Shown here: positions 88 through 11,757 of the stretch, one piece after another
How the letters are laid out: every line of letters begins with the position of its first letter
How positions within the stretch are numbered: the stretch's first letter is position 1
Source of the DNA: a virus
UHGV virus genome: UHGV-0101678
Length of the DNA stretch: 11,799 bases
Direction: 5' to 3' (one strand)
Notes under the pieces: model-generated
The model's input: the letters and a program-made list of their open reading frames with translations, nothing else
What the model was told of the DNA's origin: nothing
Database searches by the model: none
Position numbers and translations under genes: made by a program

Positions 88-100
88 CAATGACCCTTGA
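88..100. repeat. 13-bp direct repeat, copy 1 (caatgacccttga); copy 2 at 11745-11757
   Basis: Exact 13-mer read at both positions. A single exact 13-mer pair is expected about once by chance in a window this size, so significance is weak. Left copy lies in AT-rich DNA; right copy lies at the compositional boundary. Confidence 0.3.
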
Positions 101-155
101 ATGAAGTCTATTCGGTTTTCTAAGAGACCTGTTAATTACAGGACAATATCAGGTG

Positions 156-180
156 TAGTTGGGCTTGTTCCAACCCCTAT
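156..180. repeat. 25-bp direct repeat, copy 1 (tagttgggcttgttccaacccctat); copy 2 at 3235-3259
   Basis: 24/25 identity with the copy at 3235-3259 (single t/a difference). Contains an internal 5-bp inverted repeat gttgg / ccaac. Far too long to be a chance match. Confidence 0.7.
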
Positions 181-350
181 GACTATGCAATTTAATAGTA
201 GTTTTCCAAGTATCTAAGCAGTTTCACACAGATTCTATGCAGTATCGGTATAGTCTCTTTTTACCCTAACTCATTGAAATATATAAAGAATCTGTGAAGT
301 CTCTTTTCAGGGTAAACTGTATCGTGTTAGTCGTCCCTCTCCAGACACTA

Positions 351-390
351 CATATAGTGCTATATACAGGGCTATATAACGATATATAGA
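351..390. repeat. AT-rich reiterated motif, three copies of (g)ctatata / gatatata at about one helical turn spacing
   Basis: Read directly: catatagtgCTATATAcagggCTATATAacGATATATAga, copies starting near 359, 371 and 381. Iteron-like or protein-binding array; function unknown. Confidence 0.35.
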
Positions 391-501
391 TGTTTGGTCA
401 CCATACGTTACAGTTGCAAGAGATAACAATCAGCTATGTGAAAGTTAGGAAGTGATGGTTATAGTTACCCTCCTAAAATCTTCATAGCTCCTTCATAACC
501 A

Positions 502-624
502 GTCTTAAAAGGACTTCCTTTTGAGACACTTTCAACGTAACGGTAGAATGCACCCTCAAGGAGTCTTAAAAGGTTGTTTTTGGATTATGAGACAGCTAAA
601 CTTATGAGACTAACTTTTGAGACT
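502..624. promoter_or_regulatory. res/hix-like recombinase binding-site cluster and probable autoregulated promoter region upstream of the serine recombinase gene
   Basis: 26-bp imperfect palindrome at 502-527 (gtcttaaaagga-ct-tccttttgagac, arms 11/12 complementary). Second site 563-593 pairs gtcttaaaa with ttatgagac across a 13-bp spacer. Two further direct half-sites ttatgagac (602-610) and ttttgagac (616-624) sit just before the RBS and ATG at 639. The reverse complement TGTCTCATAA resembles the Tn3 resolvase half-site TGTCTGATAA as I recall it. Confidence 0.5.
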
Positions 625-638
625 TCTAAGGGGGATGT

Positions 639-1187
639 ATGGCGGTGATTGGTTATTGCAGGGTATCAACACAAGACCAGACTGTAGACAACCAGAAACT
701 ACAGATAGAGAAGGTTCACAAGGTCGATAAATGGTTTATTGATGAGGCTGTCTCAGGAGCTACAAAGGCCACCAGCAGAGATGGTTTTAGAGACATGATG
801 AACTATGTAAGGTGTGACGATACGTTAGTTGTGGTAGCTATTGACCGTTTAGGGCGTAATACCGTTGATGTGCTCTCTAACGTTGAGTCACTACAGACTA
901 AAGGTGTGAGAGTTGTTTCTTTACGTGAAGGTTTTGACCTGTCTACACCAATCGGTAAAGCAATGCTTACTATGATGGCTGGTTTAGCTGACCTTGAAAA
1001 AGACCTTATCAGTGAGCGTAGAAAAGCTGGTATTGAACGTGCTAAAGCTGAAGGGGTTCACATGGGAAGACCCGTAAAAGCTTCTTCAGAGACTGTAAAG
1101 ACGCTTATTTCACAAGGTAAAACGAGGTTGCAGATTCAGGAAGAGCTAGGAATCTCTAGAGCAACTTATTACAGACTTGCTAAATAA
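639..1187 (+). CDS. small serine recombinase, resolvase/invertase family (Hin/Gin/TnpR-like), 182 aa
   Basis: N-terminus MAVIGYCRVSTQDQ matches the catalytic-serine motif (compare Hin MATIGYIRVSTIDQ). AIDRLGRN motif present. C-terminal GRPVKASSETVKTLISQGKTRLQIQEELGISRATYYRL is a resolvase-type HTH. RBS aaggggg lies 4-5 nt upstream. Confidence 0.9.
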   Translation: MAVIGYCRVSTQDQTVDNQKLQIEKVHKVDKWFIDEAVSGATKATSRDGFRDMMNYVRCDDTLVVVAIDRLGRNTVDVLSNVESLQTKGVRVVSLREGFDLSTPIGKAMLTMMAGLADLEKDLISERRKAGIERAKAEGVHMGRPVKASSETVKTLISQGKTRLQIQEELGISRATYYRLAK

Positions 1188-1367
1188 GTTACTGAATAGT
1201 TACATGGATGTGACTGATATTTGGCTTTTTTGCAAAGGGGGTCACATAGCTGGTGTGACGGGTACTTAGCAGCTACAGATTGATTGCAGATATTTTCGAA
1301 GATTATCGGGGAAGGGAAATGTAGAGGGGCTAGTCATTTTTTATAAAAAATTTAGAGGCTGGATATT

Positions 1368-1405
1368 ACCTGTATAGATTTTAACCAGTATAGAAGCCTG
1401 TATAA
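1368..1405. repeat. three direct copies of cc(t/a)gtata(g/a) in the recombinase-methyltransferase intergenic region
   Basis: cctgtatag (1368-1376), ccagtatag (1385-1393), cctgtataa (1397-1405). Lies directly upstream of a small RBS-preceded ORF pair. Possible operator or iteron. Confidence 0.3.
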
Positions 1406-1871
1406 CATGAGGGGTTCCTATGGTCACTATATCCCTCTTTCCCACTAAGGAAGCCTTAGCAGCACCTAGGCAACTATTGACTAAGGTCAACTTCATAAAC
1501 TCAGAGTTAAGTTACCTTGAAAGATTCTACCAAGAAACTACACAGGTATTATTTAGTCTGACTGTGAAGAGATGTTTAACGGGAGGAAGAGAACCATGAA
1601 ACCGAAGGTAGGTTCTATCTTAACAGTGACCGTAAGAAGAGAACTTGAGAGACAACTAAACAAACCTCTTAAGTAAAAGACAACACTCCAGAAAGAGTGT
1701 CTGTTTAACAGGCTTCTCAAAAGCTCTTAAGAAATCTGTTAAGTAGGGTCATGTGAACAATCTTACCATTTTGTCAAGTGTTTTGTCTTTGACCTAAATC
1801 AATAAAATGTATCGTTTGATATGCTTTTAAACAAAATAGCTAAAAAATCTTTTTAGAGGGGCGCTTCGCTT

Positions 1872-2540
1872 GTGTCACATCCAATAATCAATGTCGGTCG
1901 TTATCATGGTGGTTCTGATGACTGGCGTACACCGTATCGTTTATTTCGTAACCTACACCGTGAATTTGGTTTTTCGATGGATGGTGCTGCAACTGAGCAT
2001 GACACGCTGTTACCACGGTTCACCGATGATATTCACAATCAATCGTGGATTGGTGAACGGGTCTTCGTTAACCCGCCGTTTAGCATGGCTGAGCAGTTCC
2101 TCCTAAAAGCCCCTGAAGCTGATGTGTGTGTATGTCTGGTTCCGCACAGGTCAAAGACAACTTACTGGCTTCGGTGTGTATATACAAACCCCTTTCTGCA
2201 TGAGATTCGAACGTTACACCGAGCAGTCAAATACCTTCCACCAGCAGGGAAGAAAGGTGTTGCAGCGCGTTCACCGTTTCCAAGTTGCGTTTTGATATAC
2301 AGGAACACACCCCGCAAACCGAAAGTTGAAGTTACCCAGACAATCTATTGTGGCGACACAATGCTTTTACTTGCCGTGGTTAACAGGGGTGGTTTACGTG
2401 GAAGACCCACCATTTACCCACCTGAGACGCTCGACAGCTTCATAAAGCTATACAGGCAAGGAAAACCCATTAAGTACATTGCAGATGCTCTCAGAATGCC
2501 TCTGAGCACGTCATACAGAATTGCTCAAAGGTTGAGCTAA
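1872..2540 (+). CDS. Dam-family (phage-type) DNA N6-adenine methyltransferase fused to a C-terminal resolvase-type HTH domain, 222 aa; GTG start uncertain
   Basis: Motifs DWRTP, FSMDGAAT, VFVNPPF (NPPF catalytic motif), PHRSKTTYW, HEIRT and SPFPSCV match the phage Dam N6-adenine methyltransferase family. The C-terminal roughly 50 aa (GRPTIYPPETLDSFIKLYRQGKPIKYIADALRMPLSTSYRIAQRL) resembles the HTH of serine recombinases. Putative RBS agagggg 10 nt upstream of GTG. Confidence 0.8.
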   Translation: MSHPIINVGRYHGGSDDWRTPYRLFRNLHREFGFSMDGAATEHDTLLPRFTDDIHNQSWIGERVFVNPPFSMAEQFLLKAPEADVCVCLVPHRSKTTYWLRCVYTNPFLHEIRTLHRAVKYLPPAGKKGVAARSPFPSCVLIYRNTPRKPKVEVTQTIYCGDTMLLLAVVNRGGLRGRPTIYPPETLDSFIKLYRQGKPIKYIADALRMPLSTSYRIAQRLS

Positions 2541-2580
2541 AATTCTCATATAGAGCACTGATTATGAGAATGTTAAAGAG

Positions 2581-2613
2581 GCGATTTCCCCTGTCTGGGG
2601 TTATTCGCTTTTT
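2581..2613 (+). terminator. rho-independent terminator-like hairpin downstream of the methyltransferase gene
   Basis: gcga-ttt-cccc-tgtct-gggg-ttat-tcgc followed by ttttt. A diverged second copy of the same roughly 40-bp element is at about 2744-2783. Confidence 0.45.
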
Positions 2614-3002
2614 ACTGGAAGGGTTATTTTACAGAGGTTTTTCAAACCCCCTCAATAATAGAAACGAGCAACAAACGAAGAGCGAGAAATAAAATATTGA
2701 GACTGGTGAACGGGGTCTGTAAAGATTGTTTAAGAAGTCGGTTAAGAAGGTGGCTCTCCCTTTCTGGGGTTATCGCCTTGTATCTTAGTGAGTCCAGGAA
2801 GTTCTCTGTGAAGAGTCTTGTCAGTCCTTTATATTGGCTAATTACAACTTATTGAAAAATAAGAACTTTTAGAAATTACTGTCAGAGAGGTGAATACTTG
2901 ATAGATACAGCTTTCCGGTTCTGTCAAGCTATTTTTTAATAGATAGCACAAAATGCTAAAGATGCCCCTATACCATCACGTACAGGGGGTTTTGAAGGGA
3001 GT

Positions 3003-3179
3003 TTAACGGGGTTCTGTGTGGTCATTATCCTTAAGGTCAAGCGTCCATGTACGACCGAACAATCGGAACACAACAAGCACTCTGACGAGGACGTAGCGAA
3101 GTAGCAGGCCTGCAAGCAGTCCAACACCTCCACCAGTCCATACATCAGGTGACCCCAGTTCAGGAGGGAGATTTACCAT
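3003..3179 (-). CDS. candidate small hydrophobic protein (58 aa, one predicted transmembrane helix); speculative
   Basis: Minus-strand ORF with ATG at 3179 preceded by AGGA about 8 nt upstream. Product MVNLPPELGSPDVWTGGGVGLLAGLLLRYVLVRVLVVFRLFGRTW... has a Gly/Leu/Val-rich membrane-helix-like segment. Could be a chance ORF over a locally GC-richer patch. Confidence 0.25.
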   Translation of the reverse strand: MVNLPPELGSPDVWTGGGVGLLAGLLLRYVLVRVLVVFRLFGRTWTLDLKDNDHTEPR

Positions 3180-3234
3180 TAAATTTCCTGTGTGCAATGC
3201 AATACCATGTGACCAAATACATAGTTGATTCGGT

Positions 3235-3259
3235 TAGTTGGGCTTGTACCAACCCCTAT
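3235..3259. repeat. 25-bp direct repeat, copy 2 (tagttgggcttgtaccaacccctat)
   Basis: 24/25 identical to 156-180. Flanked by a short inverted repeat attcg (3228-3232) / cgaat (3260-3264). Upstream attcggtt also occurs at 110-117 near copy 1. Confidence 0.7.
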
Positions 3260-3346
3260 CGAATAAACCTCATAGCCACGCCTTTATATTTTCCCTCTCT
3301 CATAAAACCATTATACCACAGATGTTAATGAAATGTTAAAAAATGC

Positions 3347-3375
3347 TTGACATTAGTCTTTGAAACTGCTAAGAT
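3347..3375 (+). promoter_or_regulatory. sigma70-like promoter for the small-gene operon
   Basis: -35 ttgaca (3347-3352), 17-bp spacer, -10 taagat (3370-3375); followed by RBS gaggg and ATG at 3427. Confidence 0.4.
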
Positions 3376-3426
3376 TGTATATATGAGTTAACAGAATAAT
3401 AACATCTTATGAGGGTCAGAATATGA

Positions 3427-3981
3427 ATGAGAGACGCAGAATTTAGAGCGATGCTTCAGGCATCAAGAGAACGCAACAAGCACAACTCCTACGCTTACAC
3501 AGACACCCCCACCAGCCACGAAGTACCCAAGTTCACCAGAGCAGAACGCAAAGGCATTGACGAAGTAATTCGGGCAATTACACCGAGGAGTCGTTATATG
3601 CCAACCAGAAAGAGCACGAAGAACACTATTAAAAATTATCTGGCTAACTTTGATTCTTACGAGCAACTACCATCAAAAATTGAAGATTTAATTATCGGAT
3701 TTTGCAGAAGTGAAGGTCACCCGAAATACAACAAAAAACTATTTTATATTCTAAAGAATCTTGATGAAATTAACGCAGCCAGCGTGACAAATTATCTTCA
3801 AAGACAAGCAACCAGACTTAGCTACGAATTACCAAGCGATAAATATTGTGCATTGCTTGCTGTAATGTGTGCAAAGCTGATTGGTATTGTTGAACATCAT
3901 ATTGCCGTTGGGAATATTGAGCCAATGGAAAACGAGCAACCAGACTTTGAGTTTGACCCGTATATTTTGGAGGAATTTTAA
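3427..3981 (+). CDS. hypothetical protein, 184 aa, first gene of operon
   Basis: Long ORF with RBS (gaggg) and upstream promoter-like element. No motif recognised by eye. Confidence 0.6.
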   Translation: MRDAEFRAMLQASRERNKHNSYAYTDTPTSHEVPKFTRAERKGIDEVIRAITPRSRYMPTRKSTKNTIKNYLANFDSYEQLPSKIEDLIIGFCRSEGHPKYNKKLFYILKNLDEINAASVTNYLQRQATRLSYELPSDKYCALLAVMCAKLIGIVEHHIAVGNIEPMENEQPDFEFDPYILEEF

Positions 3982-3982
3982 A

Positions 3983-4264
3983 ATGAAAACCAGACACACA
4001 CTAACCAGAGTTACAAAGACAGCCTTTGAAGAACTTAACAAAATTAAGAAGGTTACAGGTCTTTCACATGCAGCAGTGATGAAGCTTGCAATTAACCGTG
4101 ATATTAACGAGCAGGATTTGCTTAATAGTCGCTTAGAGGCAGCAAGACACCATATCCGGATTAAGAAAGATGACCTTGATAGTCTGAAATCTTTAAATGC
4201 TTTTGGACTGGATTTAGCAAGGTTGCTAAGCATCAAAATTAACAAGCTATCTCAAGAGGTCTGA
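3983..4264 (+). CDS. ribbon-helix-helix (CopG/Arc-like) DNA-binding protein, 93 aa
   Basis: Start moved to ATG 3983 (RBS ggagg 3971-3975; the previous gene stops at 3981). N-terminal TLTRVTKTAFEELNKIKKVTGLSHAAVMKLAIN follows the beta-alpha-alpha pattern of CopG-type RHH proteins. The track start at 3881 would overlap the upstream gene. Confidence 0.55.
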   Translation: MKTRHTLTRVTKTAFEELNKIKKVTGLSHAAVMKLAINRDINEQDLLNSRLEAARHHIRIKKDDLDSLKSLNAFGLDLARLLSIKINKLSQEV

Positions 4265-4266
4265 CT

Positions 4267-4539
4267 ATGAAGCAATGGCGAGATGATATTAAACGGTTCT
4301 TTGCAACTTACTTCATGATTAATTACGAAACAGGAATGCTTGAATGGATTGATGGTGGAGAGGTTAAGACAAGAGATGACGCTTACGGTAATCCAATGAT
4401 TCGTTATGGCACTCGTGATTATTATGTGAAATATGTCATCTGGTTTTTGCATCATGAAGTTCAGGCAACTAAAAAGATTATCTTCAGGGATGGTAATAAA
4501 AGAAATTGCCACCCAAACAATTTACTACTGGAGATTTAA
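4267..4539 (+). CDS. HNH_3-like protein, 90 aa, with degenerate catalytic motif (likely inactive or domesticated HNH)
   Basis: C-terminal DYYVKYVIWFLHHEV...IIFRDGNKRNCHPNNLLLEI parallels the phage HNH_3 signature (YYxHRLxW...DHIDGNxxNNxxxNL), but HRL is replaced by KYV and DHIDG by FRDG. RBS agagg upstream; 2-nt gap from the preceding gene. Confidence 0.55.
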   Translation: MKQWRDDIKRFFATYFMINYETGMLEWIDGGEVKTRDDAYGNPMIRYGTRDYYVKYVIWFLHHEVQATKKIIFRDGNKRNCHPNNLLLEI

Positions 4540-4739
4540 TGTTATGTATTAAATTCGAATATTTGACAGATAAAATGATTAAGCATGTATCAGACCTGCT
4601 CATCAAAGAAGGTGGTTTCGGTGATGCTTGCAATCCAAAAGATATCTTCATTCATGCCACCAGCCCAAACGCAACACTAAAGACAGCAGTTACAGCGGAA
4701 TGGTTTGAACGAAATAAAGCGGAATTAGGTTATTGGTAG
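4539..4739 (+). CDS. hypothetical small protein, 66 aa (translationally coupled)
   Basis: ATG at 4539 overlaps the upstream stop (TAATG) with ggag 5 nt upstream. The track ORF start at 4506 lies inside the upstream gene. Confidence 0.45.
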   Translation: MLCIKFEYLTDKMIKHVSDLLIKEGGFGDACNPKDIFIHATSPNATLKTAVTAEWFERNKAELGYW

Positions 4740-4918
4740 TCCGAGACTTTAAGAGAAATTAGAAAAACAGCTTCTCAGACGCTCTCAATCGCATTCTAAC
4801 GCAAAAAACTACCTTATTTTAGGGTGGGTAATACCACTGTGCAGGCTACCCCTGAAAAAGACTGTTTAGCTCGTTACAGAGCGATTGAGGAGGTCTGGTA
4901 AAAAGGAGATTTTAAGAA

Positions 4919-5242
4919 ATGAATAATTACGAATTACAGATTTTCGTTGATAGCGACACCACCATGATGATTCAGGCTTTCACTGATGCAGATATTATCA
5001 TTGACTTTGATAAGTTGTTAGAGTTAATGGCTGATAATGCGGAAAGCATCTCTGACTTTATTCAGTCGGTGGAGTTTAACGAGCCTCGAATGATGCTACC
5101 AATTACAGACTCAAACATGAAAAGATTGGTTATCGAGCAAACGAACAAATACAGTATTTCCCCAGAGCAATTTTTGAAAGGTGCTGTGACAATCCTGTAC
5201 AGCGATAATATTCTGGTGACGGATTCTGTGAGGGTTCACTAA
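4919..5242 (+). CDS. hypothetical acidic protein, 107 aa
   Basis: ORF with RBS aaggag about 10 nt upstream of ATG. No recognisable motif. Confidence 0.5.
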   Translation: MNNYELQIFVDSDTTMMIQAFTDADIIIDFDKLLELMADNAESISDFIQSVEFNEPRMMLPITDSNMKRLVIEQTNKYSISPEQFLKGAVTILYSDNILVTDSVRVH

Positions 5243-5342
5243 TGATGTTAATTGTATTGTGGACACTGCTAGGGGTATTTGTTGGCTGCATTATTAACAA
5301 TGCGGTAAATAAGAATTGATGTTACCAATCTGTTAAAAGCTG

Positions 5343-5371
5343 TTGACAAATAACCTTGAGCATGACATAAT
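5343..5371 (+). promoter_or_regulatory. near-consensus sigma70 promoter driving a non-coding region
   Basis: -35 ttgaca (5343-5348), 17-bp spacer, -10 cataat (5366-5371), then tgtatatat. No convincing RBS-preceded ORF follows for about 400 bp. Confidence 0.45.
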
Positions 5372-5542
5372 TGTATATATAGGGAGAGCAATTCTCTCTT
5401 ATTTTTCTTTCAATAATCCGATGGATAGATATTCTGAGTTGGAAAGGTGCAATGCTTTTCGCTACATGGCCTTTCAGGTTGGTCTGAGAGGTCATCTCGA
5501 AAAGTCTTTGTTCATTCATTCGTTTGAATCCTTTACAGCTTT

Positions 5543-5570
5543 GCCCTAATCATGATTAGGGCTTTCTTTA
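5543..5570 (+). terminator. perfect 20-bp palindrome followed by a T-rich tract (terminator-like; alternatively a dimeric protein operator)
   Basis: gccctaatcatgattagggc (5543-5562) is exactly self-complementary, followed by tttcttta. Confidence 0.35.
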
Positions 5571-5769
5571 AGAGTTTTTAAACAGACTTTTAAAGAAAGT
5601 TTTCCTGAAACTTCGTTAACGTTATAAGCAAACCTTCAAAGCCCTTCACAGATTATGTTTAGGGCTTTTCTTAATAGAGCATCTTTAATAAATCGTTAAG
5701 TCATCTTCTAAGTGTATTGGCGTTGAAGGTGCTCTATTAAGAAATAACCACACTTAGAGGAAAATTATA

Positions 5770-6480
5770 ATGACAAACGATTTATATATTAACGGTAGAA
5801 AGGTTGATAGCTTCGGTGACTGGTCGCCACAGACTGAACATCCAGCTATCGCTATTCAGCGTAAAGAACACGATGAAAGAATTAAGCTTGAGCAATCGCT
5901 AAAGATGTCACCAAAAACAACCATCTTTGTGTATCCTGAACCTCAGGAGATGCCTGATGTTTGCAAAACTGAATCATTACTTGAGCTTGAAAAGAAATAT
6001 TACCCACTGCTAAAAGCACAGCGTATTAAGCTTGATATTGCTTACGACAATGTGAAGAACTTTGAAGAGACTGAGAAGCCAACTGATTTTGATATTGAAG
6101 TGAAAATTAGACAAAACCCATTCGTATATTACTCAGTTGAGGATAATGATGGTTTTGGTACAGCAAGAGAGAATATCTCAAAAGTTCTTCAAAACATCCC
6201 TGAAGGATTCCGTTTAATTGATGTTAGACCAGCTTCACGCGGTACAGGTTCATATATTTTACTGTCTGATAAAACAGATGAAGAGATTTGTCAGTTAGCT
6301 GAAAAGAATCTACTTGAGCGTCATAGCAAAAAGTTAAACAGATTTAAGCAAGAACTTGCTAACCAGCTTCAGGCTATGAAAGAGCTTGTGAAAGAATATG
6401 AAGATGCTAAGAAGGTTGCTATGCAGGCCGATATTGAGCAGCTTACGAAGATTTCTCAGAAATATGCAAAGGCTATTTGA
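5770..6480 (+). CDS. hypothetical protein, 236 aa, with C-terminal coiled-coil-like segment; first gene of the tail-like block
   Basis: ORF with RBS agagg about 9 nt upstream. C-terminus rich in heptad-like K/E/L/A residues. Position relative to the tape-measure gene suggests a structural or assembly role, unproven. Confidence 0.6.
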   Translation: MTNDLYINGRKVDSFGDWSPQTEHPAIAIQRKEHDERIKLEQSLKMSPKTTIFVYPEPQEMPDVCKTESLLELEKKYYPLLKAQRIKLDIAYDNVKNFEETEKPTDFDIEVKIRQNPFVYYSVEDNDGFGTARENISKVLQNIPEGFRLIDVRPASRGTGSYILLSDKTDEEICQLAEKNLLERHSKKLNRFKQELANQLQAMKELVKEYEDAKKVAMQADIEQLTKISQKYAKAI

Positions 6481-6488
6481 GGTGATTA

Positions 6489-6797
6489 ATGAATGATTTA
6501 ACAGAACGCGATGAAGCAACTAAATTTTTAATTGAGCATTTTGAAGGTAAATTACAGGGGATTCGAACGACTCTTGATGATATACAGACATACAGTGAAT
6601 ATATCATTGCCAGTTTGAAGGAAAAAACTCTTGATGAGCTAAAGTATATGGGGCGAGATGACTTAACAGTTTCCCTTATCGACCTCAAAGACAAAGTAGC
6701 TGCGCTCGATAAAGAGTATTATGAGACCTTTCTTTCACTTCGTTACGAAATTGTAAAGAACGAACGCGGTGTAGAGTGCCTTCGCTTCTTAGATTAA
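6489..6797 (+). CDS. hypothetical small protein, 102 aa
   Basis: ATG 6489 with RBS gaggtga. N-terminus MNDLTERDE is paralogous to the next ORF. Confidence 0.55.
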   Translation: MNDLTERDEATKFLIEHFEGKLQGIRTTLDDIQTYSEYIIASLKEKTLDELKYMGRDDLTVSLIDLKDKVAALDKEYYETFLSLRYEIVKNERGVECLRFLD

Positions 6798-6823
6798 AAT
6801 CGAATTAAAAAAGGTGGTGGTGA

Positions 6824-7027
6824 ATGATTGATTTAACAGAACGCTATGAACTTATTAAAGCAATTAGCGAACGATTGAAAGAACAACCCAACAAACCAAA
6901 ACGAATCAAAGCATCACCTCTAAAACAAAATGACAGAATCAGAAGAATCGCTAAGTGGTGTCTTGATAAATTACCAAGTGATTGTCAGATTGTCGGTGAA
7001 GATGGTAATTATTATCTGGTTAGGTAA
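6824..7027 (+). CDS. hypothetical small basic protein, 67 aa; N-terminal paralogue of the preceding ORF
   Basis: ATG 6824 with RBS aaggtggtgg. The first 27 nt of the coding sequence are nearly identical to 6489-6515 (MIDLTERYE versus MNDLTERDE). Confidence 0.5.
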   Translation: MIDLTERYELIKAISERLKEQPNKPKRIKASPLKQNDRIRRIAKWCLDKLPSDCQIVGEDGNYYLVR

Positions 7028-7053
7028 CAAGAATTGGTTGGGTGAAAATCTAC

Positions 7054-7093
7054 GGGAGAGATTATCGAGTGACATCGGTAACTCTCCTTTTTT
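7054..7093 (+). terminator. hairpin plus T6 tract between the small ORFs and the tape-measure gene (attenuator or terminator candidate)
   Basis: gggagag (7054-7060) pairs with ctctcc (7082-7087) around a 21-nt loop, followed by tttttt (7088-7093). Confidence 0.4.
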
Positions 7094-7123
7094 GTATATG
7101 AACACTTAAGAGGTGAAACATGA

Positions 7124-9172
7124 ATGAGCAAATTCACAGTTGATAGTTTTATCGTTGAGCTAAGCTTCAATGAAAACGTTGTTAAGGGCTTGCAAAGAGT
7201 TGAAAAGGCAGCTTTGCAGTCAGCACAAAGAATTGAACGTAATTTGAATAGAGCGTTTAAGGTCGATACCAAGCAACTTGACAGCAATCTGACAAGTTCT
7301 TTAGGGCAACTTGAAAGGAAGTTTAATAAGACCTTTGACAAGATTGAGCAGCGTCTTAAAAACACTAGAGCGTTTAAGATTAAAACGGAAATTGAGGATA
7401 CTTTAAAGCCACTTAGACAGCCAAGACAGCCACGAATTAGCGGCAACAGAGCAATCACAGCAGCTTATTCAGCGAATATGTCTAAGCTAAAAGGTCTTAA
7501 CCCAATTGTCGAGAAATACATTAAGAGTCAGTTTTATGGGCTAGCTAGTAAAGCTGGTCAGATGGATAACACCAAGTTTAATGAAGCCCTTGCTAAACTA
7601 AATTCAAGTGTAAGAGAAGCAATCACTAAAGCCAGAGGTCATACATCCACCAGCATTAATGGTGACAGAGCAGCTAGCAGCCTTGATAACCTGTCTTCGG
7701 CAGCAGTCAAAACAGCAGGTGCATTTATCTCAATGCAGGCTGTATTAGCCAGTTATCAGAAGATTATGGAAGTTGGTTTACAGCGTGCAAGTGCTGAACG
7801 TTCAATTGATTTCGTATTTGATAAAGATGCAGGTCAGGTAAAAGAGTTCACAAAGTCATTAGCTCAAACAACGGGTTTAGATATCGCTGAACTGCAATCA
7901 CAGTTTGCTGGTTTTGGTGCTTCAGCTAAAGAATCTATGGGTATTCAAGGTTCTGAAGAACTTTTTAAAAATATGATTGGCTATGCTCGTCTGATGGGGA
8001 GAAGTGAAGAAGAGATTAAGCGAGCACTGACAGCATTATCACAGATGGCTGGTAAGGGTCAGATTATGGCTGAAGAGCTTAAGGGGCAACTGGCTGAAGC
8101 TGTTCCTGGTATGGTGCAGGTGTTCGCTAAAGCAACCGGAAAGAGTGAACAGGAATTATTTGATGCCATGAAGAAGGGGGCTTTAAAATCTGCCGATACT
8201 CTTCAGAAGGTCACTCAGGAACTGAATAAACAAATCACCGCTAAAGGTGGCTGGAAAGCCATTTCAGAAAGTACTCAGGCACAACTAGGGAACCTGAAAA
8301 ACTCTTGGAATACCACGCTTGATAGTATCTTCAGAGGTTCTGAAAATGGTCTTCAAGATTTCACAAGAAGCCTAACAACGCTTTTAAACGCTCTTGGTGG
8401 AAGTGGTAAAAGTCTTGGTGAATCTCTTGGTAGCTTGATGACTGATATGTCACATGGTGTCGATTCATTGACTGATATTTCTTACAAGGTGAGAGGTTTC
8501 TTTGATGAGGTGACATTGGCTTATCGTGGTTTAACCGATGAACAAAAGAAAGTTGTTGATGCTTTAGGTTCTGGCTTGATTAATAGTTTAAAAGTCTTGG
8601 CTGGTGTTATTGCTGTGAATAAAGTTGTTGGTGTAACCAGAAGTATTTACGGGCTTATGACTGCTATCACAAGATTAGGTCAGGTCGCTGATACTACAGC
8701 GGATAACGTGAATAGAAAGAACGGGAAACCATCAAGGTTTAATCTTGGGAATATGCTATTAGCTGGTAGTGCTATCTATGCAGGTTATGAGAGATTAGCT
8801 TCTACGCCTGAACGAATGGAAGCACAAGCTAAATTACCAGAGCTGGCTAAAGAGTCTGGACTTAAGCCAGTATTTACTATGGACGATGTGAAAGGTTGGT
8901 TTAATAGTGCAGCTATGAATCTTGCTAACTTCCAGCATCCAGAATTAATCACCATGAGACAAGATGCGGCATTAACGAATACGGATATCCAAAGCCTGAG
9001 AGATGAAATTAGTGCTTTGAGCAAACGTATTCAGGAGCCTGTGAAAGTTTCACTTGGTGGTGAAGTTGCCATTAAACCAGATGAAACCAGCTTTATGACC
9101 TTTAGCAGTAATATCTACGACCAATATGCAGAAGCTACGCTATTAAGTTCATCATTCCCAGAAGATGATTAA
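7124..9172 (+). CDS. tail tape-measure-domain protein, 682 aa
   Basis: Central segment GYARLMGRSEEEIKRALTALSQMAGKGQIMAEELKGQLAEAVPGMVQVFAKATGKSEQELFDAMKKGALKSADTLQKV matches the conserved tape-measure core motif (PG-containing helix pair). Overall the protein is long, helical and low-complexity as tape measures typically are. RBS agaggtg 8 nt upstream. Confidence 0.75.
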   Translation: MSKFTVDSFIVELSFNENVVKGLQRVEKAALQSAQRIERNLNRAFKVDTKQLDSNLTSSLGQLERKFNKTFDKIEQRLKNTRAFKIKTEIEDTLKPLRQPRQPRISGNRAITAAYSANMSKLKGLNPIVEKYIKSQFYGLASKAGQMDNTKFNEALAKLNSSVREAITKARGHTSTSINGDRAASSLDNLSSAAVKTAGAFISMQAVLASYQKIMEVGLQRASAERSIDFVFDKDAGQVKEFTKSLAQTTGLDIAELQSQFAGFGASAKESMGIQGSEELFKNMIGYARLMGRSEEEIKRALTALSQMAGKGQIMAEELKGQLAEAVPGMVQVFAKATGKSEQELFDAMKKGALKSADTLQKVTQELNKQITAKGGWKAISESTQAQLGNLKNSWNTTLDSIFRGSENGLQDFTRSLTTLLNALGGSGKSLGESLGSLMTDMSHGVDSLTDISYKVRGFFDEVTLAYRGLTDEQKKVVDALGSGLINSLKVLAGVIAVNKVVGVTRSIYGLMTAITRLGQVADTTADNVNRKNGKPSRFNLGNMLLAGSAIYAGYERLASTPERMEAQAKLPELAKESGLKPVFTMDDVKGWFNSAAMNLANFQHPELITMRQDAALTNTDIQSLRDEISALSKRIQEPVKVSLGGEVAIKPDETSFMTFSSNIYDQYAEATLLSSSFPEDD

Positions 9173-9329
9173 TAATAGTCGAATGCTACGTGAATAAAGC
9201 AAAGTTAATACCCACACTAAAAATTATTTTTTACGTAGCTCACGCTTAACAGAGAAAACACTTATATATCAAAGGCTTGGTTAAAAATGATTAAAACACA
9301 CTAAGCCTTTGAAATCAAAGGAGAATTTA

Positions 9330-10103
9330 ATGATTTTTAGCAATCAAATCCGCTACAGTGGCAAAGATGGCGTTTACTTCCACTTAAGAGATAATGTAGA
9401 TGCCTTCTTAACCTTATCAGCAACTGAAAACATGGAATTTGACAGCCCTATGCAGGTGACTACACAGAACATGCAATCAGGGCAAACCGTCACAGATAAT
9501 GTGCAAAGAGCACCCAGAACAATCACTATTAGTGGTGTCGTCGTAGTTGGCTATGAAGGAAGCTTATTATTAACTCGTCAAGGCCAATTAGTAGAAAACT
9601 TCATTGACACTCTTGAAAGCTGGCGTGACCAGAAGCAGATTATTTCGGTCATCTGTAAAGATGGTATCAAGATTGATGACTCCATTATTACGAGTTTTAA
9701 AGCCTCTAAAGATGTTGGTATTTCAAATGGTCTAAGAATCCAGCTAACTTTTCAGGAAATCAACTTTAAGGCTATTGTAGGGCAAACTGATATTTCAGCA
9801 GCCACTGGCAAAACGGCTACCACAAATGATGGTGGCGCTACCAGCAAAAAGAATGCGGGTAACGTGACTACTGAACGCAATAACGCACCTATGCTGATGT
9901 GTCAGGAACTGTACAGTTACTCAGCGTCTGAGCTATCTGATGAAGCATTAAAAGCCCGTAGTAATTGCTCTAAAAATGTCACGGTGAAAGATGGTGTAAG
10001 CACCTTCACAGACTCAGCTAATTCAGGTGCTGCAAAGGTACTCAAGTCGGGTAATGCTTTACGGAAGTTTTCTGTGAATCCGAACAAGAAGGGCACTTAT
10101 TGA
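9330..10103 (+). CDS. hypothetical protein, 257 aa; candidate distal-tail-type protein by position only
   Basis: Start set at ATG 9330 (RBS aaggag 7 nt upstream) rather than the track TTG at 9309. Lies immediately downstream of the tape-measure gene. No motif recognised. Confidence 0.6.
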
Positions 10104-10108
10104 GACAT

Positions 10109-10130
10109 AAAAAGGGGCTTCATAGCCCCT
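10109..10130 (-). terminator. rho-independent terminator for the integrase gene (hairpin between convergent genes)
   Basis: aggggct-tcat-agcccct perfect 7-bp stem (10113-10130). On the minus strand it is followed by TTTT(A), and it sits 6 nt beyond the integrase stop. Confidence 0.5.
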
Positions 10131-10135
10131 GATTG

Positions 10136-11656
10136 CTACAGTTGATAAGCGTCTATTTCTAGTAGCTCTTTTTCAGCAATTTCAAAGATAGATGTTCCAT
10201 CATTTAGAGGTAGCGGGTCTGTAGGAACAATTATTTCAGTGTCGTTCTGTAGCGTTACAGTTACCGAATCCTTACCCAATGTAAGCCCTTTTAGATGCTT
10301 GGACAAAATCAACTGACACTCGACACGACCCGCTTTAGTCATAAGGTCAATATCTTTAAGCTGGGGTAGTTCCTTATCAGTGAGTGAAGCCTTACGCCTC
10401 ATGTTATCAATCATGGTCTGTAGTTCTGTGCGCTTCTGGTTCAGTTCCTTAAGCTGAATTTTTAGTTCATCAATATCATCCATCTCAAGAAGTAGGGCGG
10501 TAGCTTTCTTGATTCTGGCTGTGACAATTTCAACCTCATGCTGTAGAGATGCAATCTTCCCCTCTGCTTCTCCATCATTCCCCACGTCAATCATCCCCAG
10601 AAAATTATCAATCATCCACTTATCAAACGGTTTACGCTTCAACGGTGGAACATCACAGCGACCGTCTAAGTGGTTATTGCACCTGTAGACCCCAGCATAC
10701 TTATTCTTAGTCCCTGTAGGGTGAACACTAGCCCCACACTGACACCGGAATAATCCCTTGAAGATGTTAATCGTTAATGGGTTATCACTTGCAGGTGTGC
10801 GACCTTTACGATTTTTATCGAGGATTTCTTGAGCTTTATTGAACGTTGAAGCATCTATAGCGGCTTCGTAGTAGTTCGGTATAGCGGGGCGGTCATTGCG
10901 CTGTGATGCTGGTAGTGTACCTCTCGTTGTCTCTGACCTTAAGATAGTACGCACAGAATGAACGCTAAAACCATTAGCATCTTTACGCCGTGAGAATGAA
11001 CTAATGTTATTAGCCTGTAGGTGACGGGCGATGTTATGCAGACTTTCACCATCTAGCAGCAGCTTGAAAATCAGTCTTACAGTCTCAGCGTGTTCATTGC
11101 ACTTGAAAGTATCGGGGTCAATCCATCCGGGAACCATCTTTGTAAGACGTTGTTCACCAGCAAGGGCAAGCTTTGCACGTTGTTTCCACTTCTGGCTAAC
11201 ACGGAAAGACTTCTGCTTAGACTCTTGATGAGCTACGTAGCTTTTAACGCGCTGGATGATTGAGATTCCTAAATCATCGGATAGAGCATCCCTTGTGTAG
11301 ATTAGCCCATCCTGTAGAGTGTGAATCTCGATACCATGAGCAATAATGCGATTCATCAAGGCTTCTGTTTCAAGATGTTCAAGGCGGCCTATGCGGTCGA
11401 TAGCTTCGACTAACAGAAGTGTACCTTCTGGAAACTCCCCAGACTCAATACGGGCTAACATGTCACCAAACTGACCAGTAAGATGCTTACCTTTGTAACC
11501 ACTCAACCCTTCATCACTGAAAGACGCTACTACTTGAGCATCGCTATTCTTCTTCAACCATTGCTTGAACAGGTCATTTTGTCGTCTGGTTGAATCTGCA
11601 CCTTCAGCGCCTTGTATGGCTGATGAGAATCTCAAGTATGTTATTACACTTCTCAT
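10136..11656 (-). CDS. large serine recombinase (integrase), 506 aa
   Basis: N-terminal catalytic domain (ITYLRFSSAIQ, EAIDRIGR), recombinase domain, a Cys-rich zinc ribbon (FRCQCGASVHPTG...YRCNNHLDGRC) and a C-terminal coiled coil give the typical large-serine-integrase architecture. Confidence 0.92.
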   Translation of the reverse strand: MRSVITYLRFSSAIQGAEGADSTRRQNDLFKQWLKKNSDAQVVASFSDEGLSGYKGKHLTGQFGDMLARIESGEFPEGTLLLVEAIDRIGRLEHLETEALMNRIIAHGIEIHTLQDGLIYTRDALSDDLGISIIQRVKSYVAHQESKQKSFRVSQKWKQRAKLALAGEQRLTKMVPGWIDPDTFKCNEHAETVRLIFKLLLDGESLHNIARHLQANNISSFSRRKDANGFSVHSVRTILRSETTRGTLPASQRNDRPAIPNYYEAAIDASTFNKAQEILDKNRKGRTPASDNPLTINIFKGLFRCQCGASVHPTGTKNKYAGVYRCNNHLDGRCDVPPLKRKPFDKWMIDNFLGMIDVGNDGEAEGKIASLQHEVEIVTARIKKATALLLEMDDIDELKIQLKELNQKRTELQTMIDNMRRKASLTDKELPQLKDIDLMTKAGRVECQLILSKHLKGLTLGKDSVTVTLQNDTEIIVPTDPLPLNDGTSIFEIAEKELLEIDAYQL

Positions 11657-11744
11657 GGTGATAAACTCTCATGCAATTGATTATCATTTAAAGATGAACT
11701 TATAAACGTTATGGCTAATGCTACAATGCCGAATAGCTACAATA

Positions 11745-11757
11745 CAATGACCCTTGA
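11745..11757. repeat. 13-bp direct repeat, copy 2 (caatgacccttga), at the compositional boundary next to the integrase gene
   Basis: Exact match to 88-100. Immediately followed by GC-rich sequence (11758-11799, about 60% G+C by count), unlike the rest of the window. Confidence 0.3.

Follow-up and report, generated by a model that had tools for sequence, protein, structure and literature searches.

Introduction

Homing endonucleases are recurrent raw material in the conflicts between phages and their satellites. In the HNH_3 homing endonuclease I-HmuI, Shen et al. (2004) are said to have identified Asp74 as a metal ligand and His75 as the general base. Type II antitoxins are often ribbon-helix-helix (RHH) proteins. 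I-HmuI belongs to group 2 of the His-Me finger proteins (HNH_3/zf-His_Me_endon), and inactive His-Me fingers can keep DNA binding (PMC5714182). The same review mentions an association of HNH proteins with terminases in cos phages (PMC5714182). CapR of the Vibrio cholerae PLE is a satellite repressor derived from a homing endonuclease (PMC8096241), and DndE consists of two tandem RHH domains (PMC10853773). Here we describe a 90-amino-acid HNH_3-like protein (hnh90) encoded by an island of Escherichia coli. We consider this protein a probable accessory factor that does not cut DNA, rather than a nuclease or one half of a toxin-antitoxin pair.

Results

The window (the whole stretch of 11,799 nucleotides analyzed, virus genome UHGV-0101678) corresponds to an island of ~11.6 kb located in the 5' end of tonB. 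Direct repeats of 13 bp flank the insertion at the tonB start. The putative core sequence of island excision is CAATGACCCTTGA. Of 5,426 E. coli genomes, 367 contained relatives of the island, or ~7% of the complete genomes of this species; island copies are also present in Citrobacter. The island encodes a large serine recombinase (integrase), and its tape-measure and Dit-like genes contain patches about 90 to 95% identical to Felixounavirus; capsid and terminase genes (including the large terminase) were not found in it. From the integrase, the att repeats, the missing capsid and terminase genes, and the Felixounavirus-identical patches in tail genes, we infer a satellite life style for the island, with Felixounavirus as the putative helper. 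A low-stringency blastn search of positions 2541-7123 against phages returned zero matches. Canonical HNH_3+AP2 genes are present in a sister island (L006) and in Felixounavirus. The literature searched contained no account of these islands or of any satellite of Felixounavirus.

The hnh90 gene lies in a compact operon (Table 1). The original prediction of three tightly coupled open reading frames (ORFs), with a 2-nt and an overlapping junction, was confirmed on the sequence: the 93-aa and 90-aa ORFs are separated by 2 nt, the start of the 66-aa ORF (s66) overlaps the hnh90 stop in TAATG, and a GGAG-type Shine-Dalgarno sequence precedes each of the three starts. The upstream 184-aa gene is coupled in the same way, with a spacer of 1 nt to the 93-aa gene, and the unit therefore comprises four genes instead of three. 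A promoter-like site is located ~50 nt 5' of the 184-aa gene. Searches with the 184-aa protein against Pfam, PHROG, and NCBIfam-type families gave nothing above threshold. No RNA family of Rfam was found in the window, and PADLOC returned no defense-system match for the module proteins. Two ORFs on the minus strand (3829-4245 and 4252-4512) were considered and rejected, as purifying selection acts at the codon level on the plus-strand frames.

Table 1. Coordinates of the operon features and of diagnostic hnh90 codons in the window
Feature	Position	Strand	Description
Promoter-like site	3347..3375	+	TTGACA-17-TAAGAT, extended TG; consensus scan, pattern match only
184-aa protein	3427..3981	+	ORF, family unassigned; operon gene 1, island core gene found in 367 E. 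coli genomes
93-aa protein	3983..4264	+	ATG 3983 to TGA 4264
Left junction	4247..4269	+	End of the 93-aa gene (…L S Q E V stop) with hnh90 Shine-Dalgarno; left cassette boundary
90-aa protein (hnh90)	4267..4539	+	ATG 4267 to TAA 4539; 273-bp optional cassette
Codon Lys55	4429..4431	+	Position of His in the A-H-R-L motif of canonical HNH_3 (alignments)
Codons Ile72-Phe73	4480..4485	+	Positions of I-HmuI Asp74 and His75 (alignments)
Codon Asn85	4519..4521	+	Retained HNH-motif structural Asn (I-HmuI Asn87)
Right junction	4522..4541	+	TTACTACTGGAGATTTAATG; last five hnh90 codons, Shine-Dalgarno, TAATG overlap
66-aa protein (s66)	4539..4739	+	ATG 4539 to TAG 4739

The relationship of hnh90 to HNH_3 proteins was well beyond chance. 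Its match to Pfam HNH_3 (PF13392; E = 4.4e-5, 23.5 bits) was marginally below the cutoff of 24.8 and spanned model positions 1 to 38 of 46; the score falls short because the C-terminal 8 model positions are missing. HNH families of PHROG also matched (best E value, 4.7e-5), as did 62 phage HNH proteins of BFVD at E values of ≤1e-3. A profile of the hnh90 family reached canonical HNH_3+AP2 proteins with E values down to 9e-12, and a mixed profile of His-less relatives (see below) and canonical HNH_3 proteins reached I-HmuI (1u3e) with an E value of 4.6e-7. I-HmuI was reached only once canonical HNH_3 proteins had joined the profile: a profile built solely from His-less relatives found nothing in the PDB, and a single-sequence phmmer search of the PDB with hnh90 returned antibodies and xylanases only, all of them spurious. 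These results agree with the earlier proposal that the 90-aa protein retains an HNH_3 scaffold, and the profile alignments that might have failed to show an HNH relationship revealed one. The structure model of hnh90, which has very high confidence, corresponds to the N-terminal domain of I-HmuI, with the beta-sheet region and the beta-hairpin of the beta-beta-alpha-metal motif, and the residues that define the fold are intact.

The catalytic elements of this fold are missing from hnh90. The canonical AHRLAW motif reads VKYVIW, with Lys55 replacing His, and IDHIDGN reads IIFRDGN, with Ile72 and Phe73 replacing Asp and His. Phe73 occupies the general-base column in alignments with canonical, Felixounavirus, and island HNH_3 proteins. 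The substitutions proposed from the sequence at the outset (FRDG for DHIDG and KYV for HRL) are thus present in the corrected alignments, from which the canonical catalytic residues are absent. Other parts of the motif are preserved: Gly76-Asn77 of the G-N loop is kept, and when the family is aligned, Asn85 is the one residue that never varies, with Trp59 and Leu86 almost constant. That alignment shows no conserved His or Asp elsewhere that could compensate for the loss. The chain ends 5 residues past Asn85, too early to include the helix that bears the second metal ligand (I-HmuI Asn96); in the model, no helix follows strand 2. Additionally, hnh90 has no C-terminal specificity domain (HTH, AP2, or NUMOD). 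Both hnh90 and its paralogue hnh95 are named "HNH endonuclease" in RefSeq, which, as a statement of activity, is probably wrong.

Relatives outside the islands share this loss. A word-indexed protein search returned near-identical island proteins only, and an exhaustive search of 1.8 billion representatives was required for distant relatives. The nearest nonisland relatives had E values of 1e-6 to 1e-3, and every one found lacked His at the general-base position, usually having F or Y in its place. The His-less relatives P0015 to P0024 are bacterial proteins of 240 to 455 aa with 2 to 6 tandem copies of the domain; P0023 carries such domains alongside HTH domains. They have in common with hnh90 the pattern W-F-L-x-H-G ... 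[F/Y]-[R/K]-D-G-[N/D]-x-x-N ... N-L, in which an aromatic residue replaces the catalytic His, whereas hnh90 is a single free-standing copy. No published name for these multirepeat proteins was found in the literature searched. Since the His-less state is common to distant relatives, the loss long predates the islands. The proposal of a nuclease fold without its catalytic residues is therefore strengthened by the missing Asp, His, and metal-binding helix, by the His-less nearest nonisland relatives, and by purifying selection (see below).

The paralogue hnh95 (95 aa, 40% identical to hnh90) is encoded beyond the small ORF in most islands. It scored above the Pfam HNH_3 cutoff (33.4 bits), has a His where the general base is expected, and terminates in an Asn close to the expected site of the second metal ligand. 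Since hnh95 retains this His, some members of the family may still be active. Among phage proteins, a Felixounavirus HNH protein was 33% identical to hnh90 over 57 aa (pairwise E value, 7e-9). A tblastn search of hnh90 against phages gave weak matches only (E values of 0.02 to 0.3), and an origin of hnh90 in the helper phage can therefore not be shown.

Comparisons between islands revealed that hnh90 behaves as a recently exchanged cassette. Its nucleotide identity between islands was 98.5 to 99.6%, versus 66 to 92% for the flanking genes (at the lower end, 98.5% for hnh90 between islands with flanks of 66 to 72%), and its dS was 0.02 to 0.04, versus 0.24 to >1.4 for neighboring genes. At the left junction, identity to island L004 rises from ~65% to ~99%. 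The boundaries are sharp at the ORF ends, and a clean 273-bp indel distinguishes islands with and without the gene. The right junction TTACTACTGGAGATTTAATG resembles TTAGCGATGGAGGTTTAATG, with which the 93-aa gene ends in islands that lack the cassette. All 67 genomic copies of hnh90 are at least 97% identical, and all 226 copies of hnh95 are at least 95% identical; the identity of the island core region ranges from 60 to 99%. About 293 of ~400 island copies keep hnh90 or hnh95. Like free-standing homing endonuclease genes (HEGs), hnh90 is either present or absent at one defined position flanked by conserved genes; the catalytic residues, the helix, and the DNA-recognition domain of such genes are missing from it.

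Four gene arrangements were observed among the islands. The 93-aa gene is present in essentially all of them (in L006, L007, and L012 without any HNH-like gene), and an HNH-like gene is absent from about a quarter, so the latter is dispensable for the basic life cycle of the island. In the commonest arrangement, the small ORF lies between the 93-aa gene and the HNH-like paralogue. In L004, hnh90 adjoins an unrelated 128-aa HTH protein; by subtraction, this arrangement, which has no s66, occurs in about 24 genomes. A split homing endonuclease composed of hnh90 and the 128-aa protein was considered and rejected; the 128-aa gene is mostly found alone, directly after the 93-aa gene. In L008, hnh90 adjoins a different 73-aa ORF, and codon 5 of this diverged copy, assembled from short reads, is an in-frame stop. 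The operon genes and the paralogue are under purifying selection, with dN/dS values of 0.17 to 0.28 for the 184-aa gene (versus six relatives), 0.06 to 0.19 for the 93-aa gene, 0.20 for hnh90, 0.08 to 0.14 for s66, and 0.03 for hnh95.

The small ORF gave no hits in Pfam, PHROG, NCBIfam, or PADLOC. The s66 protein is 71% identical to a 71-aa allele (s71), and the family occurs in 268 genomes (43 at ≥90% identity and 225 at 60 to 80%). By genome counts, it is always accompanied by an HNH-like gene, before or after, and the two genes adjoin in either order in every small-ORF locus sampled. Obligate adjacent coinheritance of the 93-aa gene and hnh90 is absent, as seen from the four arrangements and the discordant histories. 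If any pair exists, the HNH-like gene and the small ORF are a better candidate than the HNH-like gene and the 93-aa gene.

The 93-aa protein had been labeled an RHH protein, for which we obtained weak support. Of 21 family members, 20 matched DndE, a tandem-RHH family, below the threshold (E = 0.0067, 17.2 bits; cutoff, 25), and residues 1 to 38 aligned end to end with CopG at a nonsignificant E value of 0.8; all signals for the label were subthreshold. The C-terminal part of P27-family small terminases (TIGR01558) also gave a subthreshold match (E = 5.7e-4, 19.8 bits; cutoff, 45.6). Two pairs of helices were predicted (residues 12 to 25 with 29 to 40, and 62 to 70 with 76 to 92), with no strands, and the AlphaFold model was unreliable (pLDDT, 45). 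BLAST detected no internal repeat, and neither the family profile nor the C-terminal half found anything relevant in the PDB.

Discussion

We propose that hnh90 is the scaffold of the N-terminal catalytic domain of an I-HmuI-type HNH_3 homing endonuclease that would no longer cut DNA. Recombination at short conserved linkers of the GGAGGTTTAATG type between genes would have carried it to diverged islands in recent times; the protein would be translated by coupling from the four-gene operon, and the gene is maintained by purifying selection. Its role is most probably noncatalytic: it may bind DNA, or a DNA-bound partner, through its retained beta-sheet surface, perhaps acting together with the coinherited small protein, and may thereby alter or prevent some transaction on DNA, either of an infecting phage or of the island itself. 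For example, it could occupy sites used by the related, active HNH endonucleases encoded by Felixounavirus. Because hnh90 is without the beta-beta-alpha helix and the C-terminal HTH, which make much of the DNA contact of I-HmuI, DNA binding may be weak or nonspecific, and a protein-binding role is equally possible. Taken as a whole, this explanation (a dead I-HmuI-type scaffold, carried as a recently shuffled optional cassette, with a noncatalytic role) has in our judgment about an even chance of being right. A bolder version would place the window in an undescribed satellite or defense-island family of virulent Felix-O1-type myoviruses, in which the dead HNH protein and its small partner form an exchangeable interference cassette that turns an inactivated scaffold of the helper's own HEGs to binding, without cutting, the sites or partners of those enzymes, protecting the island or sabotaging the helper; we would give this version little weight.

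Compatible with the dead-scaffold explanation is a two-component effector module, in which the small protein might be an inhibitor, an immunity-like factor, or a cofactor of the HNH-like protein. The count of the small-ORF family (268) matches the sum of the HNH-bearing arrangements (67 for hnh90 and 226 for hnh95), the alleles appear matched (s66 with hnh90 and s71 with hnh95), the overlapping junction implies coupled translation, and both hnh90 and s66 are under purifying selection. However, hnh90 also occurs without s66, next to the 128-aa HTH gene or the 73-aa ORF, and the co-occurrence is drawn from counts and six sampled loci; such a module is a possibility worth keeping in mind, albeit an unlikely one. 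Somewhat less probable is that hnh90 is a decaying, functionless remnant of a selfish free-standing HEG, which would have entered between the 93-aa gene and its neighbor and then become inactive. The precise intergenic presence/absence with sharp boundaries, the very low diversity that suggests recent spread, the lost catalytic residues and truncated C terminus, the premature stop in L008, and the canonical HNH_3+AP2 genes in L006 and Felixounavirus would all fit decay. Yet the dN/dS values of hnh90 and hnh95, the intact fold residues in a very confident model, the retention of either gene in most island copies, and a His-less state older than the islands speak for maintenance; moreover, a dead endonuclease cannot home, and the cassette has nevertheless spread recently among diverged islands.

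Three further readings assign the locus a more conventional activity. A nuclease or nickase that works through noncanonical residues (e.g., His62, His63, or His82) or through a partner in trans could account for the homing-like spread of the cassette and for the RefSeq name, and hnh95, with its general-base His and terminal Asn near the second ligand site, lends it some plausibility. It is nonetheless very unlikely for hnh90, which has lost its general base, the metal ligand beside it, and all of the metal-binding helix; the replacing aromatic residue is conserved in distant relatives, and the family alignment offers no compensating His or Asp columns. That the 93-aa protein might be a small-terminase-like protein for DNA recognition with the HNH-like protein as its cofactor, as in HK97-like cos phages, is suggested by the subthreshold TIGR01558 match. 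Such a packaging pair is highly improbable given that not every island has the HNH-like gene and that it moves independently of the 93-aa gene, that hnh90 falls in the I-HmuI/HNH_3 group and not in the packaging HNH group, and that it is catalytically dead in an island missing the large terminase. Tight gene spacing and the weak RHH-like signals of the 93-aa protein underlay the original prediction of an antitoxin/toxin or regulator/effector pair, which the distribution contradicts: the 93-aa gene belongs to the island core and hnh90 is optional, with about a quarter of the islands having the former and no HNH-like gene, and in most islands the small ORF intervenes between the 93-aa gene and the paralogue. 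The ages of the two genes are likewise discordant (66% versus 98.5% nucleotide identity), both sit inside a four-gene operon without PADLOC matches, and the putative toxin has no catalytic element; we regard a toxin-antitoxin-like module as hardly credible.

If a function is found for hnh90, it would define a role for His-less HNH_3 domains, including the tandem arrays of other bacteria. It would also provide an entry point into an island family that about 7% of complete E. coli genomes carry and that is apparently tied to Felixounavirus, whose phages are used for typing and biocontrol of Salmonella and E. coli.

Among described proteins, I-HmuI (174 aa) is the structural counterpart of hnh90 (90 aa), which differs in being without Asp74, His75, the Asn96 helix, the C-terminal helices, and any HTH, AP2, or NUMOD domain. 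The DNA-binding domains Smad MH1 and NFI are also degraded His-Me fingers; they are distantly similar, eukaryotic, and zinc stabilized and, unlike hnh90, have kept the helix. For the 93-aa protein, the size, the two putative strand-helix-helix-like units, and the weak but consistent match to the first RHH of DndE recall the single-chain tandem RHH proteins DndE, TraY, and VirC2, from which it differs in that all its matches are below significance and no repeat was detected by BLAST. CapR, which has no sequence relationship to hnh90, is a precedent for the reuse of part of an HEG by a satellite in a role that involves no cutting. Like CapR, hnh90 is a small HEG-derived protein on a putative phage-parasitic island, with active HEG relatives in the putative helper. 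The two would have been derived in opposite ways: CapR, the best-studied case, retains the DNA-binding portion of GIY-YIG/T5orf172-type HEGs but no longer their nuclease domain, whereas hnh90 has lost the DNA-binding domain and its island keeps only the nuclease scaffold.

An endonuclease fold without its chemistry

The 90-aa protein (hnh90) has an endonuclease fold without the chemistry, is under selection, and is an optional component that travels as a cassette in a coupled operon of a phage-related island. Its relationship to HNH proteins, as originally predicted, was borne out by Pfam, PHROG, family-profile, and mixed-profile matches. hnh90 matched Pfam HNH_3 with an E value of 4.4e-5 (23.5 bits, for a cutoff of 24.8 bits; model positions 1 to 38 of 46) and PHROG HNH endonuclease families at 4.7e-5, and 18 of 1.8 billion representatives had E values of ≤1e-3 when searched exhaustively with HMMER. 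A profile of the hnh90 family reached canonical HNH_3+AP2 proteins (E values down to 9e-12), and a mixed profile reached I-HmuI, a homing endonuclease of solved structure, at 4.6e-7. The paralogue of related islands (hnh95, 95 aa) is 40% identical to hnh90 (pairwise E value, 3e-26) and clears the Pfam HNH_3 threshold with 33.4 bits. The AlphaFold model of hnh90 was well resolved (pLDDT, 93.6; pTM, 0.85), and a viral structure library gave 62 matches at E values of ≤1e-3, with the named ones among the matches listed being mostly phage HNH endonucleases.

Motifs of hnh90 were aligned with those of canonical members, the HNH_3+AP2 protein of a sister island, and a Felixounavirus HNH endonuclease. 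The A-H-R-L-A-W of canonical members is V-K-Y-V-I-W in hnh90, and I-D-H-I-D-G-N is I-I-F-R-D-G-N; by these corrected alignments, the replacements first noted (FRDG for DHIDG and KYV for HRL) were right to within one residue. In I-HmuI, Asp74 is a metal ligand and His75 is the general base (Shen et al. 2004, as cited in PMC5714182). Mapped on I-HmuI, hnh90 has Ile72 and Phe73 at these positions and retains the structural Asn (Asn85, equivalent to Asn87). At this motif the model has two strands but no helix after them, and hnh90 also lacks the C-terminal HTH domain found in I-HmuI-type enzymes. Judged from sequence and model, hnh90 is predicted to be catalytically dead, beyond the extent first described.

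A His-less branch of HNH_3 under selection

The catalytic His was absent from its column in every non-island relative found among the 1.8 billion representatives, and most have Phe or Tyr there; hnh90 is therefore a member of a His-less HNH_3 branch, with the motif W-F-L-x-H-G ... [F/Y]-[R/K]-D-G-[N/D]-x-x-N ... N-L. Such relatives still score strongly against Pfam HNH_3 (for example, 113 bits with two copies and 220 bits with five). The bacterial proteins P0015 to P0024 (240 to 455 aa) carry two to six tandem HNH_3 copies with Phe or Tyr for the catalytic His, and P0023 has MarR/HTH domains besides; they look like DNA-binding arrays made from dead nuclease modules. No published account of the branch turned up in the part of the literature that was accessible.

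Between the window and the diverged copy at the related locus L008, the dN/dS ratio of hnh90 was 0.20 (dS, 0.42), and between two islands that of hnh95 was 0.03. Together with the His-less relatives, these values indicate that the loss of activity is old and has been maintained, and a fold kept under selection without catalytic chemistry supports the proposal of a domesticated nuclease. The L008 copy (positions 562 to 834; 84% amino acid identity), from an assembly of short-read metagenome/SRA data, is interrupted by an in-frame TGA at codon 5, and the ORF after it is a different one of 73 aa; the copy may be a pseudogene, restart at an internal Met, or reflect an assembly error. At the general-base position, hnh95 (L003, positions 2549 to 2836, and relatives) still has a His (I-H-R-N-G-N), and its last residue is an Asn roughly where the second metal ligand would be; it lacks the Asp and the greater part of the helix. 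Its activity status is less clear than that of hnh90.

An optional cassette in a four-gene operon

The three coupled ORFs of the original prediction are real and form the 3' tail of a four-gene unit. Across all four frames, dN/dS values of 0.06 to 0.28 versus relatives indicate codon-level purifying selection on the plus strand, so the long antisense ORFs are not coding frames. The stretch of about 890 bp upstream, which has no convincing ORFs, contains a direct repeat, several inverted repeats, and divergent promoter-like sites, and may serve in regulation or as an origin.

Features of the island and its four-gene operon
Feature	Position	Strand	Remarks
Direct repeat, left	88-100		13 bp, CAATGACCCTTGA, which includes tonB start codon; element boundary
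Small serine recombinase	639-1187	+	resolvase/invertase type, with HTH_7
Dam-type methyltransferase	1872-2540		N6-adenine; fused to C-terminal resolvase-type HTH
ORF-poor stretch	2541-3426		
Direct repeat	2572-2604, 2741-2773		33 nt, 76% identity
Inverted repeat	3320-3339, 3388-3407		brackets plus-strand promoter-like site
Promoter-like site	3339-3310	-	
Promoter-like site	3347-3375	+	upstream of 184-aa ORF
184-aa ORF	3427-3981	+	first of four coupled ORFs; GGAG-type ribosome-binding site
93-aa ORF	3983-4264	+	start 1 nt past 184-aa stop; GGAG-type ribosome-binding site
Linker-type junction	4247-4269		
90-aa ORF (hnh90)	4267-4539	+	2-nt spacer after 93-aa ORF; GGAG-type ribosome-binding site
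Linker-type junction	4522-4541		
66-aa ORF	4539-4739	+	ATG overlaps hnh90 TAA (TAATG); GGAG-type ribosome-binding site
236-aa protein	5770-6480		relatives labeled "transposase" in RefSeq
Tape-measure protein	7124-9172		
Dit-like tail protein	9309-10103		
Large serine recombinase	10136-11656	-	506 aa; adjoins right repeat
Direct repeat, right	11745-11757		13 bp, as left; element boundary

The core of 184-aa and 93-aa genes was present in 367 of 5,426 complete Escherichia coli genomes (60 to 99% identity), and Citrobacter also has close homologues of the 93-aa protein. At least four arrangements occur 3' of the 93-aa gene: hnh90 followed by the 66-aa ORF (arrangement A; the window, L001, and L002), a 71-aa allele of the small ORF followed by hnh95 (B; L003, L005, L010, and L011), hnh90 followed by a 128-aa HTH protein (C; L004), and the 128-aa protein alone, without an HNH-like gene (D; L006, L007, and L012). 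L008 provides a fifth kind of neighbor for hnh90. Genomes with hnh90, hnh95, and the 128-aa gene numbered 67, 226, and 128, respectively, and the small-ORF family occurred in 268 (43 with the window allele and 225 with the other), which by subtraction gives roughly 43, 225, 24, and 104 genomes for A, B, C, and D. It follows from these counts that the 93-aa gene is core, and that the HNH-like gene is optional and has no fixed place beside it. This distribution is the decisive evidence against a toxin-antitoxin-like pair of RHH and HNH-like proteins, the other reading originally offered.

Between the window and L004, nucleotide identity was 72% for the 184-aa gene, 66% for the 93-aa gene, and 98.5% for hnh90 (dS, 1.4, saturated, and 0.04, respectively), and the switch coincides exactly with the ends of the hnh90 ORF. 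A clean insertion of 273 bp separates arrangement C from D. Identity is at least 97% among all 67 copies of hnh90 and at least 95% among all 226 of hnh95. The last 20 nt of hnh90 (TTACTAC[A/T]GGAG[G/A]TTTAATG) reproduce the 3' end that the 93-aa gene has in islands of the empty arrangement (TTAGCGATGGAGGTTTAATG). Their short linker, GGAG(G/A)TTTAATG, combines a Shine-Dalgarno sequence with a stop/start overlap and recurs at successive gene junctions; junctions of this type in the window and in L003, L005, and L006 coincide with mosaic breakpoints. The linker is a plausible candidate for a recombination joint in cassette exchange, and it provides the last codons of hnh90, which may explain the endpoint of the ORF.

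A satellite-like island at tonB

Both ends of the window belong to the yciI-tonB region of E. coli, and the element (roughly positions 101 to 11757, about 11.6 kb; G+C content, 37 to 44%) lies within the 5' end of tonB, whose first codons are rebuilt at the right end of the island and whose native upstream region is replaced. Expression of tonB may hinge on island sequence, which bears on TonB-dependent phages and colicins. Besides the operon, two serine recombinases, the methyltransferase, and tail genes, there are several genes of unknown family. The "transposase" annotation given to relatives of the 236-aa protein is doubtful; it had no support in Pfam, NCBIfam, PHROG, or PADLOC, and the sole match, to a small-terminase PHROG, was weak (E value, 0.1). 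Upstream of the operon in the sister island L006 lies a homing-endonuclease-like gene of the canonical HNH_3+AP2 type that appears intact (positions 447 to 971, minus strand), so the left arm of the islands is also variable cargo.

Phage nucleotide matches of the window were confined to two pieces within positions 7115 to 9863, about 89 to 95% identical to Felixounavirus, one of them (about 9345 to 9863) inside the Dit-like gene. The tape-measure protein aligns end to end with those of Felixounavirus at only about 28% identity. This mosaicism of the tape-measure and Dit-like genes suggests that the island makes helper tail parts in versions of its own. It carries an integrase, att repeats, and tail genes resembling those of a helper but neither a capsid nor a terminase gene, a gene content that suggests a phage satellite, or a defense island of satellite-like type, tied to Felix-O1-type phages. 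Literature searches found no paper describing this island family.

Possible partners and mode of action

hnh90 would act by binding rather than cutting, and DNA would be its likeliest ligand, for three reasons. The N-terminal sheets that it retains contact DNA in I-HmuI-type enzymes, His-less relatives sit in multirepeat proteins (at least one with HTH domains), and DNA binding is seen in degraded His-Me fingers, Smad MH1 among them. Since hnh90 lacks the helix and HTH domain that supply much of the grip of I-HmuI, it could plausibly bind protein instead or act as a dominant negative. The main rival, or complement, to a noncutting, binding role of hnh90 is a two-protein unit with the small ORF. 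Small-ORF members always accompany an HNH-like gene, on one side of it or the other, and alleles of the two appear to be matched, judging from the genome counts and six sampled loci (L001, L002, L003, L005, L010, and L011; seven with the window). This constancy is the strongest hint of a partner that remains, although hnh90 is also found without the small ORF.

The 93-aa protein is possibly a single-chain tandem RHH protein. Residues 9 to 49 gave a subthreshold match to the first RHH domain of DndE, which has two in tandem (PMC10853773), in 20 of 21 family members; residues 1 to 38 align end to end with CopG, an RHH repressor, at a nonsignificant E value of 0.8, and the predicted helices fall into two pairs in a model of low confidence (pLDDT, 45). 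A search for internal repeats gave none that was significant, and there was a subthreshold match to the P27 small-terminase family.

The observation behind the original prediction was essentially right. As a finding, hnh90 is a variant on an already known theme, and the island that carries it is the more unusual object. The closest functional analogue of hnh90 is CapR, the homing-endonuclease-derived repressor of the Vibrio cholerae satellite PLE (PMC8096241), which, in comparison with hnh90, kept the opposite half, from a different class of homing endonuclease.
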